Assembly: GCA_018819375.1 (NCBI GenBank)
Contig: JAHJQH010000071.1
Span: forward strand, 1 to 24,408
Source of the DNA: Nanobdellota archaeon
Lineage (GTDB): Archaea > Nanobdellota > Nanobdellia > SCGC-AAA011-G17 > GW2011-AR20
Direction of reading: 5' to 3'
DNA length: 24,408 nucleotides
Part shown: positions 1-6,984 of the stretch, piece after piece
Layout: each line of letters begins with the position of its first letter
How positions within the stretch are numbered: position 1 is the first letter of the stretch
The notes under the pieces: model-generated
The model's database searches: none
Seen by the model: only the letters and a program-made list of their open reading frames with translations
Told to the model about the DNA's origin: nothing
Made by a program: the position numbers and the translations under genes

Positions 1-11
1 AAAATAGAAAC

Positions 12-19
12 CTTTATAT
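12..19 (+). promoter_or_regulatory. TATA box with upstream purine-rich BRE; leaderless transcript for 43..690
   Basis: GAAAC-TTTATATA lies 23 nt upstream of the ATG at 43, typical archaeal leaderless spacing. Confidence 0.6.
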
Positions 20-42
20 ATCATCTCCGTTAGATTTAACTT

Positions 43-690
43 ATGAAAACCACAAAACCCATAAAAACAAGGGAACTATTAAAAAAACTTAAAGGAATTC
101 AGACCATTCCGTCCGTAATGACAAATCTAAACATAAACAGACAAAAAGCTGTTTACTGCATTTACAGACTAAGAAAACAAGGTTATGTTAAGACAAAAAG
201 ACAATCAACAAAAAAGAGGATATACTACGTCTCTTTTGAAAACAAGTTAGGGGGTTCAACTTATGAAGAACTAATAAACAAAAACTCTCCAATAAAAATC
301 TCAGTTTCAGGAACACATCAGGTTTATGGCAGAACACCAACACCAGAAGAAGCATTAATATATGCATTAAAAACAAAAAACTTCAGAACCATCCTTGCTT
401 CATTAGGCCTTTTTAGAAAAATAAAAGACTGGAAACTCCTCTATCATCTAGCAAAACAGAACAACTTAAGAAAAGAAATAGGGGCGTTGTATGAACTATC
501 AAGAAAAAGAATCAGAACAAGAAGAACCACAAAAACTTTCCTTAATCAATCCTCTCCAGAAAAAACAGAAAAATACAAATATATCCTCCCAAACATGAAA
601 TCCAAAGATTTCAATGAGATTCAAAAAAAATGGAGAGTTTACATTCCATTTAATAAAAAAGATTTAGAGGTATACAACACAGGAATATGA
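43..690 (+). CDS. Winged-helix protein, AbiEi-like (type IV TA antitoxin/regulator-like)
   Basis: N-terminal wHTH pattern (AVYCIYRLRKQGYV...RIYYVS); C-terminal TPEEALIYAL...DWKLLYHLAKQ; 4-nt ATGA overlap with the downstream nucleotidyltransferase. Confidence 0.6.
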   Translation: MKTTKPIKTRELLKKLKGIQTIPSVMTNLNINRQKAVYCIYRLRKQGYVKTKRQSTKKRIYYVSFENKLGGSTYEELINKNSPIKISVSGTHQVYGRTPTPEEALIYALKTKNFRTILASLGLFRKIKDWKLLYHLAKQNNLRKEIGALYELSRKRIRTRRTTKTFLNQSSPEKTEKYKYILPNMKSKDFNEIQKKWRVYIPFNKKDLEVYNTGI

Positions 691-1367
691 TAACTATAGA
701 AGAACAGCAATCATTGTTGCTGAACATTTCAAACAAGCTAAAAAAAAGAATAACAATTTATGCAATAGGTGGGACAGCTATGATGTTTCTTGGATTAAAA
801 GATGCAACCTTGGATATTGACCTTGTGTTTGATACAGAAAAAGAAAGAGAAACCTTCATTAATACTGCAAAAGATTTAGGTTACATAAAAGCAGACCCCA
901 TAAAGATTTATGGAAAAAAGAAAAACCAGCCAGAAATGCTCACCTTAGGCGAGCATAGGTTTGACCTTTTTCTAAGCGAGGTGATTCACTTTTATTTTTC
1001 AGAAGATATGAAAAAAAGAGCAGTAAGAATTTATGAGATAGGAAAAAACCTTATTCTCAAAATAGCAGATCCTCAGGACATACTTCTTATGAAATGTGCA
1101 ACAGACAGGATGAAAGACAAGGATGACGCAAAATCAATAATAGAAGAAACAAAAATAAATTGGGAAATACTTATAGACGAGGCAAAAAATCAGGTTAAGT
1201 TAGGTAAAGAAAGGGCTTTATTTGATTTGGGAATTTTCCTTGATGACCTGAAAAAAGCAAAAATAAAAATCCCGGCAAAAGTTCTGGACGAGATATATAA
1301 GCTGGTAAATGCACAAATAAAACGGAAATCGAACAGGCAGATTTTTATACTGAAAAGTCTTAAATAA
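687..1367 (+). CDS. Nucleotidyltransferase, DUF6036/AbiEii-like
   Basis: IGGTAM...TLDIDL polymerase-beta-type NTase motif and later KCAT.RMKDKDD motif. Confidence 0.75.
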   Translation: MITIEEQQSLLLNISNKLKKRITIYAIGGTAMMFLGLKDATLDIDLVFDTEKERETFINTAKDLGYIKADPIKIYGKKKNQPEMLTLGEHRFDLFLSEVIHFYFSEDMKKRAVRIYEIGKNLILKIADPQDILLMKCATDRMKDKDDAKSIIEETKINWEILIDEAKNQVKLGKERALFDLGIFLDDLKKAKIKIPAKVLDEIYKLVNAQIKRKSNRQIFILKSLK

Positions 1368-1372
1368 ACTAA

Positions 1373-1747
1373 ATGAGAAATACAATATTTTTAGTTGGAT
1401 TGTTAGTAATTCTGTTATTCATTAGTGGGTGTGGTGCCCAAATTGAAACCCCTTCAAATGTTTCAAATAGTCTTGCCTCCCCCAAGCAAGATGAAAAAAT
1501 AAATAATCAGATTGAACCATCTATTAAAGATATGTATGGAGAACCCTGTGAAAGTCTTGAAGATTGCGGGGAGTGGATACCAATCTCAGAACCAGAATGT
1601 TTAGGGAATAACCTATTTCAAAGATTTAATAAAACAAGATGTTTGCCAAAAGATGCAATGCATATAAGGGAAACAAATACGATAGAAAGAGATTTCACAA
1701 CCATTTGTAAATATCAAGCTGTTTTGGAGAGAATAGGGAGTTGTTAA
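1373..1747 (+). CDS. Small Cys-rich secreted/lipoprotein-like protein
   Basis: Hydrophobic N-terminus ending in the lipobox-like ISGC; six further Cys. Confidence 0.6.
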   Translation: MRNTIFLVGLLVILLFISGCGAQIETPSNVSNSLASPKQDEKINNQIEPSIKDMYGEPCESLEDCGEWIPISEPECLGNNLFQRFNKTRCLPKDAMHIRETNTIERDFTTICKYQAVLERIGSC

Positions 1748-1752
1748 AATAA

Positions 1753-2120
1753 ATGGGTGTTTATTTAACTAAGAAGATGGTAAAGAAGAACCTTAATCAA
1801 CAAGATTTAAAAAAGCTTTATAAAAGATATCTGAGAAATAAAGCAGACTATAACTTTAATATGGGCATATTCCTTGGAATAGTTTTTGGAGTTGTTATTA
1901 ATATTTGGGCGGTAATGCTTTATGAAAACTATCTTAAACAAGCCAACCAAGTGAAATAAAAAGATTTATTTTGTGGGGGGCGGTTATCATAATAGTTATA
2001 ATTATCCTTTTAACGATAAGAATAATAAAAAGAAGGATAGAAAATTTTAGGATTGTAGAGATTTTAAATGAACAGAATGAAGAACGACCTCCTTACTCAA
2101 ACCCAAAAATTTTATTGTAA
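1753..2120 (+). pseudogene. Two-TM membrane protein interrupted by a frameshift near 1945-1950
   Basis: ORF 1753..1959 stops, but the -1 frame is open from 1950 to TAA 2118-2120 and reads SEIKRFILWGAVIIIVIIILLTIRIIKRRIENF...PKILL (a second TM helix). Confidence 0.6.
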
Positions 2121-2190
2121 CTAGATTAGATAGGGATTAATCTTAACCCTCACCTCAAACATCTTGATCATCCCCCACAAAAACCCAATC

Positions 2191-2199
2191 ATATATAAA
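2191..2199 (+). promoter_or_regulatory. TATA box for the PIN gene
   Basis: ATATATAAA lies 23 nt upstream of ATG 2223. Confidence 0.5.
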
Positions 2200-2222
2200 T
2201 CATTAGATTAAACTAATTTTTC

Positions 2223-2825
2223 ATGAAAAATAAGATTATGATATTTAGTCATTTTAAGGGGGGAATAATAAAAAAGTGTTTTGGGGTCGGTTTAGATGCA
2301 GGAGTTCTTATTGCACTCATAACAAATCCAATAAAATCAAAGGAAATTTTACTTGAAGATTTGCAGGAACAAAAAGATTTGCTTTATACTCATCCTATAG
2401 CTTTCCAAGAAGCAAGAAGAAGATTATACAGGGGATTTAATTATTCTTGGGAAGAATCATTAAAGGTTCTAAAGAATCTCAAAAAGGAGTTTAACATTAA
2501 AGAAGTTTCATTAATAAAAAATAATCCAAAATTAAAAGAGCTTGATAAGTTATGTGAAAAAGATAATTGTGATGCTGGGGACAATGACAAAAAGATAATA
2601 TCCGACTTTAAAGAATCAGGTATTTTCCTCACTTATTCCAACAACAATCATTTTATTCGAGCATCAAAACTCATAGGATTAAATTCAAGAAAATTTCCAT
2701 CAGATGATAAAATCCTAAAAAAGAAGTATTATGACGCCTTGATTAACAAACCTAAACAAAAGAGGGGTCGGAGTAGATTTCGAAAGCCTTTTCTCGGTTT
2801 CCTTTTGCCTTTTCTAAGGATTTAA
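2223..2825 (+). CDS. PIN-domain (VapC-like) nuclease
   Basis: VGLDAGVLIAL (first acidic site), PIAFQEA, GDNDKKII and LTYSNNNHF in PIN-fold order. Confidence 0.6.
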   Translation: MKNKIMIFSHFKGGIIKKCFGVGLDAGVLIALITNPIKSKEILLEDLQEQKDLLYTHPIAFQEARRRLYRGFNYSWEESLKVLKNLKKEFNIKEVSLIKNNPKLKELDKLCEKDNCDAGDNDKKIISDFKESGIFLTYSNNNHFIRASKLIGLNSRKFPSDDKILKKKYYDALINKPKQKRGRSRFRKPFLGFLLPFLRI

Positions 2826-3075
2826 ACCAGAACTCTTTTCTATCCTGCTCTATCCCTTCTGTTACCGCTTTCATCTTTCTTTCATCCACATTCAACATAG
2901 ACCAAAGTTCAAAGTTTATAAGTGCTTTTTGCCTTTTCACTCCCTCTTGGACAATTTCCTTGACAATATCCTTAAAAACAGGATTATCCTGAATATCCTG
3001 AACAATTCTTTGTTCTATTTCCTCTATATAAGTATTAGAAAATATTTCGATATTGTTGTTTAAAATGGATTCCAT
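2752..3075 (-). CDS. Hypothetical acidic helical protein, convergent with and overlapping the PIN gene by 74 bp
   Basis: 107-aa ORF with protein-like composition. Confidence 0.6.
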   Translation of the reverse strand: MESILNNNIEIFSNTYIEEIEQRIVQDIQDNPVFKDIVKEIVQEGVKRQKALINFELWSMLNVDERKMKAVTEGIEQDRKEFWFKSLEKAKGNREKAFEIYSDPSFV

Positions 3076-3186
3076 ATGAATAACCTACTTATCTGCTTAT
3101 AACACAAACATATCAATTGTTGTTACATTAACATCAATATTGATAGTATATAAAGTTTATTACTACGCAAAATATAGGTGATTCCA

Positions 3187-3309
3187 TCACTTCTTCTCAA
3201 AAAGTTCAACCTGGTCGCTGTCTTCCAAGATATGCTCCAAACCAACTTGTTAACTACTGAATCTTGCACTCTTTCCCCAAACCCTCGCATACCTGAACTT
3301 CTTAATAAA
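3187..3309 (-). pseudogene. Decayed C-terminal TGS-domain fragment of a DRG/Obg GTPase
   Basis: Reverse strand translates FIKKFRYARVWGKSARFSS*QVGLEHILEDSDQVELFEKK*, matching the end of 4831..5739 (YARIWGPSAKFDGQQVGMEHILEDGDVVELFENR); one in-frame TAA; no start codon. Confidence 0.85.
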
Positions 3310-3431
3310 AAATATGCCAAGAAAGAGTTAAACAAGCGAAAACACCCATAAAAAAGTCCAAATGGTCTTTTTATTCCATCTTAAAAGATACTCACTCTTT
3401 CTTCTCATTTAGTAAATTATTCATTTTAAAC

Positions 3432-4565
3432 TTATTCCATCCTAGCTAAAATATCCTCAAGAGATGTAGAAACATACCCAATACTCTTATCTGACGCACC
3501 ATAAAAATGAGTTATGAATTTTTTATCTGAAGATAAAAAATGGGAAGTAGGGAAAACAACACCCTCATGACAAATTACGCCTTGTTCAAGTTCCCATAGT
3601 TCTTCTGGTTTAATAAGAGGTTTATAAGTTCTCGCAATTATCTTCTGAGGATTATCTGAGTCTGCTAAAGCTACTCCTAAAACATATTTCATTTTTGGTT
3701 TTATAATAGCACCATGATAAAATATTAATGTTCCTTCTTCTATCTCAACTGGTTGTCCTGCTAACCCAATATGACTTTTCTCCCAATCATATTCTTGTCT
3801 TAACAAACTAAAATTATCGATATTCTTTACAACTTTTTGCCAAAATTCATGTTTTGCAAGTTCTAAAAAGTCCTTAACATACACAATTTGAATATCTGGG
3901 AGAAGTCTAATTAGAACGCCATAATGTTCTTCCCCATCTACCAATATTTTTTTGGGCCAAATTGAACAATCTTTTGTATCTAAATAAAAAGGAGTTTTTG
4001 GAGTGAATAAATTACCTTTTGCTTTAGATTTTATAATGTTGGTTTTATGAACATAACCCCATTTTTCTTTATATCTCCTTACAGGAACGAGGTTTATAGA
4101 TTCTTCAGCCGCGATATTAGGAAACCACACACCAAAACTATGCCAAGATAAAGAATCTTCCAAATCCCCCTCATTTCTTATATATTCTGTTCTAGCATTA
4201 TAACCATCATAATGAACCAAAAATGCATGAACAACATCTTCTCCAGGGGTGGTAGCAAATCTTAAATCTTCCACCCCACGATAACCATAAGGTTCTTCGG
4301 GAATAAAAATAGCTCTTTCAGTATCTTCTAATACCTCAACAAAACCTTCATCATTTAATTTGGCATCATACCTTACAATAGCTGAATTATCACCATGCTC
4401 ATCACCATAAATAAGCCTGCCAAAGATTAATAACTTGTTGGGGTTACAAGGAAAAACAGCTGGATTGGTAATTCCCTTTCTTTTGAACTTTTTAGTTAAA
4501 GGTAAGCCAGGAACAGGTCTATCTTTATCACCTTTAATTGTCATTACCAATTGTTTTTTACACAT
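3432..4565 (-). CDS. GH130-family glycoside phosphorylase/hydrolase (DUF377-like beta-propeller)
   Basis: Motifs ITNPAV, GVEDLR, TKDCSIWPKK, HIGLAGQPVEIEEGTLIFYHG, VVFPT, FYGASD; real start probably ATG 4565 or 4544, since the track start at 4712 lies in the repeat. Confidence 0.8.
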   Translation of the reverse strand: MCKKQLVMTIKGDKDRPVPGLPLTKKFKRKGITNPAVFPCNPNKLLIFGRLIYGDEHGDNSAIVRYDAKLNDEGFVEVLEDTERAIFIPEEPYGYRGVEDLRFATTPGEDVVHAFLVHYDGYNARTEYIRNEGDLEDSLSWHSFGVWFPNIAAEESINLVPVRRYKEKWGYVHKTNIIKSKAKGNLFTPKTPFYLDTKDCSIWPKKILVDGEEHYGVLIRLLPDIQIVYVKDFLELAKHEFWQKVVKNIDNFSLLRQEYDWEKSHIGLAGQPVEIEEGTLIFYHGAIIKPKMKYVLGVALADSDNPQKIIARTYKPLIKPEELWELEQGVICHEGVVFPTSHFLSSDKKFITHFYGASDKSIGYVSTSLEDILARME

Positions 4566-4673
4566 ATTTAATAATCTAAAAATAACCTTCTTAAGGTTAT
4601 CTGAAAAAGATATTTTATATATCTCACCCCCCAGCATACAACCCAGCCACACCTTTTTGAGCACACAACGAAA

Positions 4674-4717
4674 AAAGGTCTGTTGAACCCTACCTGTTCT
4701 CAAAAAGTTCAACTACA
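4674..4717. repeat. 44-bp exact direct repeat, copy 1 (duplicate of GTPase 3' end plus stop)
   Basis: AAAGGTCTGTTGAACCCTACCTGTTCTCAAAAAGTTCAACTACA is identical at 4815-4858. Confidence 0.95.
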
Positions 4718-4814
4718 CCTTTGTAAAAACATAAACGAGCGTCAGCGAGCAATGCAAGATGTCGCGAAGCGAGATCTGCTCCGCATACAAGGTAGGTTCA
4801 CCTTGTCAAAGAAG
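4718..4814. mobile_element. 97-bp hairpin-rich non-coding element between the 44-bp repeats (MITE/REP-like or integration scar)
   Basis: GC-rich core with hairpin AGATgTCGC-GAA-GCGAgATCT (4757-4777) and perfect ACAAGGT-aggttc-ACCTTGT (4787-4806); no ORF of its own. Confidence 0.45.
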
Positions 4815-4858
4815 AAAGGTCTGTTGAACCCTACCTGTTCTCAAAAAGTTCAACTACA
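4815..4858. repeat. 44-bp exact direct repeat, copy 2 (overlaps the GTPase stop)
   Basis: Identical to 4674-4717. Confidence 0.95.
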
Positions 4859-5739
4859 TCCCCATCTTCCAAGATATGTTCCATTCCTACCTGTTGCCCG
4901 TCAAATTTAGCAGATGGCCCCCAAATTCGAGCATAAGGCTGTTTTTTAGAATTTATACCGGTTTTTTTATTTCTCTTGATGAAATCCTTGTGGATTCTCA
5001 TTGCAAAATCCCTCACATTACTTCCAGCAGAAAGGGCAACCGGAATGCCAGTCATCTTTTTCTTGTTCCTGTCTTTTGTATGAATCTTAATCAACCCCAA
5101 ACTTTTCCATATTCTTTCCCTTGCTTCATCAATCCCAAGTCCATTTTCCCCTTTCAGTCCAACTACAATGCTTTTCTTATGAATGTCATTTTTCTCTAAC
5201 TCGGATTTCACGAGCTTGACCTGTTTATCAACATCCCTCAGCATGTCCACAACAAAAATAACAACATCACACATCCTGATAACACCCAAAAAACTAGGCC
5301 CATTCTCAGTTTCATAATAATTCCTGACAATTGCGGGAACTTCAACAACCTGTACCTTAACACCAGAATAATTCATAATTCCAACTTCTGGTTTGAAAGT
5401 GGTAAAATCGTGCTCACTTACTTTGACCTTAGCTCCAGTAAGTGCTTTCAGCAAAGTGCTCTTTCCTGAATTAGTCACTCCGACAAGGCAGACACAGGCA
5501 TCACCCTCTCTCTTAACACCTATCCCGCCCCCCCCTCCTTTTTTTCCTTTTTCTTTTTTCAGCAGATCTCTTGCCTTAGCTAACTTCCTCTTTATCTCAT
5601 CTCTTAATTTTTCAGAACCTTTATGAGAAGGAGCAGTGGAGAGCATTTTCTGAAGTGCCTTAATCCTCTCTTCAGTAGTTTGTGCTTCGTGATACCCTTC
5701 CTCTGCCAATCCATATTCATATGTTGCATTAATCGGCAT
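4831..5739 (-). CDS. DRG/Obg-family GTP-binding protein with TGS domain
   Basis: APSHKG N-terminal motif, G1 GVTNSGKS, G2 FTT, G3-like EVPA, TGS YARIWG..AKF.GQ.VG.EH.LEDGD.VE. Confidence 0.93.
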   Translation of the reverse strand: MPINATYEYGLAEEGYHEAQTTEERIKALQKMLSTAPSHKGSEKLRDEIKRKLAKARDLLKKEKGKKGGGGGIGVKREGDACVCLVGVTNSGKSTLLKALTGAKVKVSEHDFTTFKPEVGIMNYSGVKVQVVEVPAIVRNYYETENGPSFLGVIRMCDVVIFVVDMLRDVDKQVKLVKSELEKNDIHKKSIVVGLKGENGLGIDEARERIWKSLGLIKIHTKDRNKKKMTGIPVALSAGSNVRDFAMRIHKDFIKRNKKTGINSKKQPYARIWGPSAKFDGQQVGMEHILEDGDVVELFENR

Positions 5740-5919
5740 CTCGCATCAAGAAAGCAGAATTCCTTCAAGTATAAAAACCTAACCACCTAAATTCATTGTG
5801 TGCTATGTCACGAAGTTATACCTCACATAAACTCATGGTTACCTTAAAATTTGGTGAAGGGTTAAAACAAAAGAAAAGCAGGATTTATATACTTTAATTT
5901 ACTTATTACATCAAATAAA

Positions 5920-6150
5920 ATGGGAATCAATGATTATCAAAAACCAACAAAAGAAGAATACCCTACAAAAAACCATACAAGATACAATAGTTCAATAATC
6001 TTTCCAGAAACAAATAAACTAAAATTTCGGAAAGAGAGCGAACTCACACTTGAACAACGAACAGACCCTGACTACAGAATAAAACAATTAGAAAAACTTA
6101 ACATTGGAAAACTCCTGATTACGTGTGCCAAATGCCATCATTGCAGGTAG
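5920..6150 (+). CDS. Small hypothetical protein with C-terminal CxxC-H-C cluster (possible Zn binding)
   Basis: 76-aa ORF ending CAKCHHCR; TTTATATA at 5884-5891 upstream. Confidence 0.55.
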   Translation: MGINDYQKPTKEEYPTKNHTRYNSSIIFPETNKLKFRKESELTLEQRTDPDYRIKQLEKLNIGKLLITCAKCHHCR

Positions 6151-6336
6151 ATTATAGGTAAAATTAAACCCCCTTCCTTTTCTGTTAACTTAAAGGCTGG
6201 TGACAAATGTCTTTGCTCCATATAATTCACACCAAAAACCAACAAACCCCAAAAAACCGCAAAGTATTTAAACAACCAAAAACTAAGAACTAACATCTTA
6301 CTTCTAGTAAATAGAAATAAAAAAAGCAGTTAAAAA

Positions 6337-6984
6337 ATGGAAATGGGAAAAAACGAGTTGTTGAAAAGCGGAACAACTACTATTGGAATGGTATGCAAAG
6401 ATGGAATTGTCCTCGCCGCAGACAAAAGAGCAACAATGGGCAATTATATCGCAGACAGGAAAGCACAAAAAATACACCAAATCTCAAAAGCCATAGCAAT
6501 CACGATAGCAGGAAATGTGGCAGATGCTCAATTAATCATAAAAATAATAACCGCCCAGCTTAAGCTGGAAGAAATGAGAAAAGGAAGACTGCCTTCTGTG
6601 AAAGAAGCAGCAAGCTTGTTAGCAAACATAGTTTATTCAAACATAAGAAAATTCAGCACAATCCCGGGAATAACTCATTTTCTAATTGGAGGTTCTGATT
6701 CTGAAGGATTTCATTTGTATGAAATATTTGTGGATGGTAGCACAACCAAACACGATGATTTCGTAGCTTCTGGTTCAGGAAGTCCAATGGTCTGGGGGTA
6801 TCTGGAGAATCTGTATAAGAAAAATATGGAGATAGAGGAAGTAGTACAATTAGCAATAAAATCTTTAAACGCTGCGATACAGAGAGATAGTGCAAGTGGA
6901 AGTGGAATAGACATAATCCAAATAACAAAAGACGGATTCAGTAAGATACTGGAAAAAGAAATACAAACAAAAGTGGCAGTGTAA
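6337..6984 (+). CDS. psmB: 20S proteasome beta subunit
   Basis: Short propeptide then G|TTTIG, LAADKRAT, SGSGS, RDSASG motifs. Confidence 0.97.
   Translation: MEMGKNELLKSGTTTIGMVCKDGIVLAADKRATMGNYIADRKAQKIHQISKAIAITIAGNVADAQLIIKIITAQLKLEEMRKGRLPSVKEAASLLANIVYSNIRKFSTIPGITHFLIGGSDSEGFHLYEIFVDGSTTKHDDFVASGSGSPMVWGYLENLYKKNMEIEEVVQLAIKSLNAAIQRDSASGSGIDIIQITKDGFSKILEKEIQTKVAV

Follow-up and report, generated by a model that had tools for sequence, protein, structure and literature searches.

Next to the gene of a DRG-like GTPase, the stretch of DNA analysed here (the window: 24,408 nt, contig JAHJQH010000071.1 of assembly GCA_018819375.1 from a Nanobdellota archaeon) probably holds a decayed relic, devoid of an integrase, of a family of site-specific elements that target this gene in DPANN-type archaea. 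A tyrosine recombinase of 460-480 amino acids (aa) would join such an element to the gene at the codons for D-F-(I/L)-K-K-(F). The element would supply a new gene end, namely a linker of 11-14 residues, the last three strands of the TGS domain and a stop codon, and the GTPase would stay intact. The native gene end would come to lie beyond the element and persist there as a canonical fragment beside the integrase gene. In the window, the body of the element and its integrase would since have been lost, and a single GH130 gene with its own upstream region lies between the presumed element-type end (4831-4974) and native end (3187-3312). This gene would be either cargo of the element or a later arrival at an unstable spot.

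The features on which this interpretation is built are, in window positions:

4831-5739, minus strand: resident GTPase gene, 302 aa (Pfam PF01926, 69.5 bits; PF02824, 42.9 bits)
4975-4986, minus strand: codons for D252-F-I-K255, the proposed junction and remnant of the attachment (att) core, placed at five loci by the fragment starts and by the departure of the resident genes from the canonical sequence directly after these codons
4936-4974, minus strand: 13-codon linker (RNKKTGINSKKQP); the gene is 11 residues longer here than in canonical relatives
4831-4935, minus strand: last 34 codons and stop codon, presumably supplied by the element, as judged from alignments and the AF2 model; holds copy 3 of a 17-nt repeat
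3187-3312, minus strand: free-standing pseudo-copy of the GTPase 3' end, FFIKKFRYARVWG ... VELFEKK followed by a stop codon, canonical and linker-free

The GTPase gene and its two ends

The resident GTPase consists of an MMR_HSR1 G domain and a C-terminal TGS domain. The MMR_HSR1_Xtn domain (PF16897), which longer homologues have, was not found in the 302-aa protein, and a safe name for the predicted product is a DRG-like short form (DRG/Rbg-like). Orthologues are present in 218 of the 240 genomes of the order, and the nearest homologues are named Woesearchaeota, Nanoarchaeota or "archaeon". The window also encodes proteasome beta, FttA/aCPSF1 and ThrRS, by which it is recognised as archaeal.

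The target gene has been kept: its open reading frame (ORF) is intact, with a pLDDT of 87.5 for the AF2 model, and a canonical pseudo-end is situated 1.5 kb downstream. In the model, a helix of the TGS domain ends at the DFIK codons, some 45 codons ahead of the stop, the linker forms a helix extension and a loop of lower confidence, and the replaced gene end corresponds to the final three strands of the TGS fold. The position of the linker at a helix end and in a loop of the modelled fold accounts for the tolerance of the insertion. D252-F-I-K255 would be the place where the native 5' part of the gene meets the 3' part supplied by the element.

The pseudo-end downstream reads FFIKKFRYARVWGKSARFSS, an in-frame TAA stop (3250-3252), QVGLEHILEDSDQVELFEKK and the final stop. 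Its identity is 68% to GTPase residues 265-301 and 74% to P0007, the latter value being a hand count on the sequences. The fragment, and not the resident end, is taken as the native copy because it is canonical like the gene ends of the relatives, while the linker of the resident gene is shared only with P0005. The fragment at 3187-3312 would thus be the displaced native gene end.

The best non-self match of the GTPase, with 70% identity, is encoded on a JGI contig (L067) and has a canonical gene end. This locus is free of the linker, the fragment and the GH130 gene and retains the FttA-proteasome-GTPase synteny. There the GTPase gene is followed directly by genes for a cupin, PIG-L, an acetyltransferase, UPP synthase and RNase P p30. 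In the present organism the acetyltransferase gene is missing from the locus, and the cupin (47% identical), PIG-L, UPP synthase and RNase P genes are reached only after about 6 kb of extra genes. A further nucleotidyltransferase pair of about 1 kb separates cupin from PIG-L, and the genes adjacent to the GTPase in L067 lie about 6-7.4 kb further off.

Recurrence of the junction at related loci

The C-terminal parts of 23 resident GTPases from genomes, four metagenome homologues and four fragments were aligned. Among 41 related genomes, stand-alone C-terminal fragments of the GTPase occur only in the present genome (G000) and in two others, G001 and G007. The 240 genomes of the order added one more, G140, together with an extra piece at a contig end of G060, which was left out as ambiguous. 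A linker of 11-14 residues directly follows HKDF(I/L/V)K(K) in 3/3 fragment-holding genomes and in 0/20 of the other aligned relatives (Fisher's exact p = 5.6e-4, a value to be read with the kinship of these genomes in mind, as they are not independent). The canonical HKDFxKKF(K/R)(F/Y)ARIWG is found in all 20 fragment-free relatives and, among the four metagenome homologues, in three. The linker is also present in G140, from the wider order, and linker-type genes make up about 10 of about 220 database homologues. Linkers from several divergent hosts share the pattern IK.DGK..KIIK.WARVWG, suggesting that the linker-bearing gene ends have a common origin.

In G000, G001 and G007 the fragment is of the canonical type, and its start lies exactly at the codons that the linker follows in the resident genes. 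The starts coincide in five loci: F|FIKKFRYAR in G000, ILKRFNFAR in G001, FLKKFRFAR in G007, FIKKFKFAR in L072 and DNLKKFRFAR in L115, the last two being loci described below. The fragment prefix KKFRYAR was considered as a signature of the element and dropped, as it is canonical GTPase sequence in relatives. In G001 the fragment has an Ogg glycosylase gene on one side and, at a distance of 76 nt, a divergently transcribed gene for a 479-aa tyrosine integrase on the other; the intact GTPase gene of this genome is on a separate contig. In G007 the order is GTPase end, 269-aa ORF, fragment, 109-aa ORF and Ogg, a layout like that of the window. The 269-aa gene of G007, which occupies the integrase position and has a similar leader, was considered as a decayed integrase; it has no Pfam or PHROG match and was not retained as such.

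If the linker marks a gene end of element origin, an element and a canonical fragment are expected behind other linker-type genes too. This prediction was checked on four homologues, P0033, P0171, P0216 and P0030. P0033 was chosen from its sequence alone as being of the linker type. Its locus (L072, NCBI contig JAIYOA010000053.1) bears out the prediction and consists of the GTPase gene, a complete element of about 8.7 kb, the fragment and host genes. The element is made up of small same-strand ORFs, an AAA_25 DnaB/RepA-like helicase and then, on the opposite strand, a 463-aa tyrosine integrase, and the canonical fragment (FIKKFKFARIWG...) lies 82 nt from the integrase start. The integrases of L072 and G001 are 34% identical over their full length. 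At the P0171 locus (L116), the GTPase gene is followed, as far as the contig reaches, by a front end like that of L072 (small ORF, AAA_25, small ORFs). The P0216 locus (L115) lacks an integrase; its GTPase gene precedes two radical-SAM/SPASM genes and then a canonical fragment (DNLKKFRFARVWG...). In L115 and G007, as in the window, one or two genes separate the canonical fragment from the linker-type gene. Integrase-bearing elements at the same place in G001 and JAIYOA010000053.1 bear out the claim of an earlier note on this DNA that the 3' part of the GTPase gene is an integration site, and through these related loci its idea of an integration hotspot was right in substance.

L116 was compared with a second locus, L117 (JGI samples 3300032731 and 3300033064, respectively). 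The two encode an identical GTPase protein and are 100% identical over 3,968 nt, which comprise the gene and the beginning of the element and beyond which L116 has small element ORFs and L117 has a PMT_2/epimerase/DegT glycosylation cluster. The difference looks like a very recent replacement at the site.

Proposed position of the crossover and the 17-nt repeat

The breakpoint lies about 145 nt before the stop codon and about 125 nt upstream of a 17-mer, TTCTCAAAAAGTTCAAC, which the earlier note had taken as the att core. The 17-mer occurs as three exact copies on the plus strand, at 3194-3210 (copy 1), 4697-4713 (copy 2) and 4838-4854 (copy 3), with 0.01 matches expected by chance. A fourth copy is absent when up to two mismatches are allowed, and there is none elsewhere in the 706-kb genome. 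On the minus strand all three copies encode V-E-L-F-E. The positions given in the earlier note (starts at 3194, 4697 and 4838) are therefore exact, and so is its reading of the copies as VELFE codons; copy 2 lies outside any gene. Copy 3 is the genuine 3' end of the resident gene, and copy 1 lies within a pseudo-copy, about 125 nt long, of the last 40 or so GTPase codons.

The 17-mer sits inside longer, unequal repeats. Around copies 3 and 2 there is a 52-nt direct repeat (4807-4858 and 4666-4717) of 96% identity, 44 nt of which are exact and which differs at two positions. It comprises the final 28 nt of the GTPase gene, including the stop codon, and 24 nt past the stop. Around copies 3 and 1 the similarity extends over 63 nt with 78% identity. 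Both repeats represent homology of gene ends and are not att cores. By a rough estimate, the chance of a 17-nt exact run within about 110 nt at 78% identity is about 0.3, and because such a run is not very unlikely, the 17-mer alone does not testify to a crossover core. The three copies differ in kind and do not represent equivalent att cores, and the proposal that they do gives way to the breakpoint at the DF(I/L)KK(F) codons which the five loci share.

It is nevertheless conceivable, and in our judgement unlikely, that the crossover took place at or near the 17-mer, that the body of the fragment is a GTPase-like attP arm of the element and that the linker is native to the host. The 17-nt identity is indeed the longest run shared by the resident end and the fragment in this genome, and the presence of the linker in P0005, a similarly distant protein, could mean vertical inheritance. 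Against this, no exact repeat of at least 9 nt was found at the far end of the GTPase gene in L072 or G001, the rare linker-type genes are associated with fragments or elements, P0001 and P0033 have canonical nearest relatives, the fragment boundary equals the linker position in five loci, and the 17-nt run is, as estimated above, not unusual.

The similarity at the DFIK codons, to which we assign the junction, is short and imperfect: about 10 nt in the window, about 20 nt with three mismatches in L072 and 9 nt exact in G001. In G001 this DFLK junction is the sole exact match of at least 9 nt between the resident end and the fragment region. As the junction repeat is so short and imperfect, the crossover is placed by protein-level boundaries only, and its exact point is accordingly an approximate one. 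An AAATCA motif is found on the element-side arm about 20 nt upstream of the core in G001, L072 and G007; its absence from G000 and L115 agrees with decay at these two loci. A 13-nt match between the linker of G007 and the arm (p about 0.1, a rough estimate) was not used as evidence.

Origin of copy 2

The region between the GH130 gene and the end of the GTPase gene is organized as follows:

4634-4717, plus strand: left unit of a local duplication, outside any gene, consisting of a diverged module (4634-4665) and the left repeat copy (4666-4717)
4718-4806, plus strand: GC-rich spacer of 89 nt with 48% G+C, of which 4736-4806 is a repeat module known on other contigs
4807-4858, plus strand: right copy of the 52-nt repeat, with the inverted repeat GTTGAAC(N18)GTTCAAC, made up of the last 28 nt of the gene and 24 nt downstream

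Copy 2 of the 17-mer is contained in the left 52-nt repeat. The module at 4736-4806 is 97% identical over 71 nt to C90:8521-8591 and 98% identical over 51 nt to C4:1474-1524. Leftward of the repeats the two units stay similar in the form of a diverged module. Judged by this arrangement, copy 2 is in all probability the product of a later local duplication of a 141-nt unit of GC-rich module plus gene end and is no att site. The earlier note had proposed nested insertions that left three att sites, which does not fit the assignment of copy 2 to this duplication. The 89-nt spacer was also considered as an insertion like a miniature inverted-repeat transposable element with a target-site duplication; this was rejected, as the flanking repeat is at least 52 nt long and continues as a diverged module. 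No tandem array was found by TRF.

A related possibility is that two related elements integrated in tandem or nested fashion and were then reduced by deletions, with copy 2 being the gene end of the older element. Elements with tyrosine recombinases are known to form tandem arrays at re-used sites (PMC6563490), the present site is re-used across different genomes, and the 52-nt copies are 96% identical even with the 24 nt past the stop codon included. Nevertheless, copy 2 comprises only the last nine codons, without linker or junction, and the 89 nt between copies 2 and 3 are mostly a repeat module of other contigs. The similarity continues leftward as a diverged module, which is expected of a duplicated unit of module and gene end, and at least one precisely placed deletion would be needed. 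We consider tandem integration improbable and favour the local duplication.

The structure could also be questioned as an assembly artefact in which strain variants were merged via a common repeat. The window is the entire contig C59 of a metagenome-assembled genome (G000: 706 kb in 98 contigs, 84.6% complete, 36% G+C), and a Logan contig from run SRR6514730 is broken inside the repeat, at window position 4829. This break is, however, exactly where a true 44-nt repeat predicts it, because a unitig at k=31 must stop at an exact repeat of that length. Furthermore, a second assembly, a 46.3-kb ENA contig, agrees with the window at all but one of 15,739 nt, and the 52-nt copies can be told apart at two positions. 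The agreement of two assemblies and the break at the predicted place show that the structure of the locus is real, and there is very little probability left for an artefact.

Absence of the integrase and the case against an integrated element

The statement of the earlier note that no integrase is visible in the window holds. The recombinase search on other contigs that it called for yielded two tyrosine recombinases of the size of Xer proteins (276 and 284 aa; C60:1762-2238 and C66:1220-1693, one of them on a 2-kb contig), but both are outside the 460-480-aa integrase subfamily of the elements. Because the integrase is missing, the window is classified as a relic and not as an element. There is no tRNA gene in the window, Rfam gave nothing credible in 3000-6400, and no terminator-like sites were found. 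A scan with the integrase alignment gave no relative in viral contigs, one weak match in metagenome contigs and, in genome contigs, only the contig of G001 itself. No free element with an attP site was found.

Several observations weigh against a relic of such an element. No integrase of the family is present either in the window or in the 84.6%-complete genome. The proteins of the block of about 7.4 kb that is described below share no gene with the elements of L072, G001, L116 and G007. The repeat at the junction amounts to only some 10-20 nt with mismatches. Within 10 kb of P0030, a linker-type gene of the G140 type, there is neither an element nor a fragment, an exception that we read as loss of the element by deletion. 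The separate fragment of G140 is itself of the linker type and is situated beside a HerA-like ATPase. P0005, a relative of about 66-70% identity, has the linker of the resident protein and is not closer to it in the remaining protein; this sharing calls for a second integration or for an ancient common event, and the latter is hard to reconcile with a pseudo-fragment that can still be recognised. Within each genome the resident end resembles the fragment, which host-adapted elements, gene conversion or other models fit. Finally, an empty site was not found at the species level, and the comparison with empty-site alleles that the earlier note had suggested succeeded only at the distance of L067, whose 70% identical GTPase gene sits in a locus that looks like an empty site.

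The most radical alternative dispenses with a mobile element altogether. The gene end would have been duplicated locally, the GH130 gene would have been inserted by illegitimate recombination, and the likeness to the integrase-bearing loci would be coincidental. The genome indeed lacks the family integrase, shared element genes and a clear att repeat, and it has undergone an unrelated local duplication in the same region. This leaves unexplained the linker, the fragment boundary common to five loci and the integrases adjacent to fragments, so that we give it little probability.

The stand-alone linker-type end of G140 (C11:12276-12374; L061:6277-6375) begins 15 nt after a HerA/FtsK-like ATPase gene and precedes a PIN-domain gene, while the resident GTPase gene, also of the linker type, is on another contig; this end might represent the attP side of a further element. 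On L073 (3834-7832) and L074 (457-4455), a gene for a 1332-aa Lhr-like DEAD-box helicase with an intein (Intein_splicing, LAGLIDADG) lies upstream of the G140-type GTPase gene. The linker-type GTPase P0147 is encoded on two contigs, L120 and L121 (ENA ERZ28563625 and ERZ4903072), and both of these independent assemblies end about 38 nt past its stop codon, as if assemblies tended to break at the element boundary.

The GH130 gene and the accessory block

The part of the window downstream of the GTPase gene contains, apart from the fragment, the following features:

3432-4565, minus strand: GH130-family gene (Pfam PF04041); its start is uncertain, the possibilities being ATG at 4565, 4544 or 4637, according to the gene caller used
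3313-3431, strandless: non-coding spacer of 119 nt between the GH130 gene and the fragment; intact elements have the integrase gene start and the element-side arm here
1-3186, strandless: accessory block of low G+C with a helix-turn-helix (HTH) protein, a DUF6036 nucleotidyltransferase and small ORFs

The match of the GH130 protein to PF04041 (2.7e-21; 76.3 bits against a cut-off of 26) covers profile positions 129-317 only. Gene calls give 370 and 401 aa, and a mechanical ORF of 426 aa has a TTG start at 4712, within the left 52-nt copy. The gene is enclosed by copies 1 and 2 of the 17-mer, as the earlier note had said, its ORF running from 3432 to about 4565 on the minus strand. The best database homologue is 53% identical, and the subfamily is a rare one, with only 17 proteins matching at E <= 1e-30. 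Matches occur in 14 of the 240 genomes of the order, of which one is strong (47% identity) and is a pseudogene. Homologues are found elsewhere in glycan clusters or other contexts, not beside the GTPase gene. Because the distribution is patchy and the homologues have unrelated contexts, the gene was acquired at this locus and not inherited there. Vertical inheritance at the locus, which the earlier note had named as the finding that would speak against its proposal, is thus not the case. Its further suggestion that the insertion brought in the GH130 gene is plausible from the position and the patchy distribution, but the locus has no gene in common with the intact elements. GH130 is a candidate cargo of the element, and other routes of arrival may be considered.

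One such route, to which we attach a low probability, would make the site a platform for gene capture. Units of one or two genes without an integrase, each bounded by an element-type gene end and by an arm beside the displaced native end, would be mobilised in trans by an integrase of the family. Candidate units are the GH130 gene in the window, the 269-aa protein gene in G007, the two radical-SAM/SPASM genes in L115 and the glycosylation cluster in L117. If this were true, tiny DPANN genomes would swap metabolic genes at the 3' end of a housekeeping gene, in a manner loosely resembling integron cassettes.

The accessory block extends past the window start on the longer ENA contig, and about 6 kb in total are missing from the nearest relative. 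Its G+C content is 32.6%, compared with 36.1% for the genome, and window positions 1-3186 fall at the 5th percentile. No further GTPase fragment was found in the block. A 200-aa ORF was considered as a radical-SAM protein and rejected, since its match is below the Pfam cut-off; it is unrelated to the radical-SAM genes of L115 and L070. Two pairs resembling toxin-antitoxin systems flank the block, at window positions 43-1367 (HTH_27 and DUF6036 nucleotidyltransferase) and, outside the window, at L065:17315-18264 (138-aa ORF and NTP_transf_2/Polbeta nucleotidyltransferase). Neither is found at the corresponding place in L067.

Comparison with known systems

SGI1 and related islands are mobilised by tyrosine recombinases and integrate into the 3' end of the GTPase gene trmE (thdF), which is regenerated. 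Their att site is the last 18 bp of trmE, present as an exact repeat; the system is bacterial and the GTPase is an unrelated one. The analogy drawn in the earlier note is valid for integration in the 3' end of a GTPase gene with the frame regenerated, but it does not extend to a crossover in the last 18 bp or so. In the present gene about 145 nt separate the junction from the stop codon, the repeats are inexact, and the gene-end 17-mer does not serve as the crossover site.

A closer parallel is found in Thaumarchaeota, where 14 of 68 elements integrate in the 3'-distal parts of protein genes and reconstitute the reading frame (PMC6563490). As in the present case, the 3' part of an archaeal protein gene is used, a stop codon supplied by the element restores the frame, the att sequences are short, and empty sites in relatives served for validation (PMC6563490). 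The differences are that the host here is of the DPANN type and the target a DRG-like GTPase gene, that the replaced piece amounts to about 45 codons and three TGS strands, with the extra linker as a signature at the protein level, and that the window copy is a relic without an integrase. Casposons of family 1 prefer the 3' end of the gene for the GTPase EF-2 and may form tandem arrays (PMC6563490). They are thus likewise archaeal mobile elements at the 3' end of a translational GTPase gene. Casposons, however, have Cas1, PolB, terminal inverted repeats and target-site duplications, whereas the related elements described here encode a helicase along with a tyrosine integrase, and neither Cas1 nor PolB is among the matches in their precomputed Pfam lists.

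Integrases of the same recombinase family that target tRNA genes follow the same logic, in that the 3' part of the target gene is replaced; here the target is a protein gene. In 38 of the 240 genomes of the order there are proteins 26-34% identical to the G001 and L072 integrases, some of them encoded beside tRNA genes. A GTPase fragment adjoins one of the 30 integrase loci examined, namely the G001 copy.

A literature search, which did not include one relevant DPANN mobilome paper, found no report of a DRG-like GTPase target or of such sites in DPANN archaea. These organisms have very small genomes, and how they gain genes is little understood. The locus and its relatives define the TGS-encoding end of a gene for a DRG-like GTPase as an integration target, and with it an integrase subfamily that uses this site. 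The linker after HKDFxKK is a scar at the protein level, by which the sequence of the GTPase is enough to flag past integrations, even where assemblies break at the element. Since differing cargo, mostly related to glycans and radical-SAM enzymes, is found at one site across lineages, the site is a useful marker of gene flux. The window copy itself is a dead relic, and only the acquired GH130 gene gives it biological importance of its own.

A family of GC-rich repeats in the genome

The module in the 89-nt spacer belongs to a family of GC-rich modular repeats in this genome of 36% G+C. A 21-nt linker (ACACGCGAGCATCAGCGAGCA) connects hairpin modules, which have AGGTTC loops. Rfam has no match to the window copy. 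A 26-nt segment at C7:3354-3379 with 96% identity to the module is situated in frame within a gene like those of class I aminoacyl-tRNA synthetases, inside a Cys-rich insert of 22 residues (CEEKLSTVDCKSTPAYKIGSPC). This segment was considered as an insertion flanked by a target-site duplication. Excising it together with an apparent 8-nt repeat breaks the frame, and it is an in-frame coding insert. Repeat sites of the family are found at C4:1285-1584, C17:1305-1720, C90:8516-8927, C95:14976-15034 and window positions 4634-4806, with singletons on C39, C58, C67 and C84. The array on C4 lies directly upstream of tRNA-Thr, that on C95 lies between two tRNA genes, and that on C17 is upstream of an apparent ribosomal protein gene.

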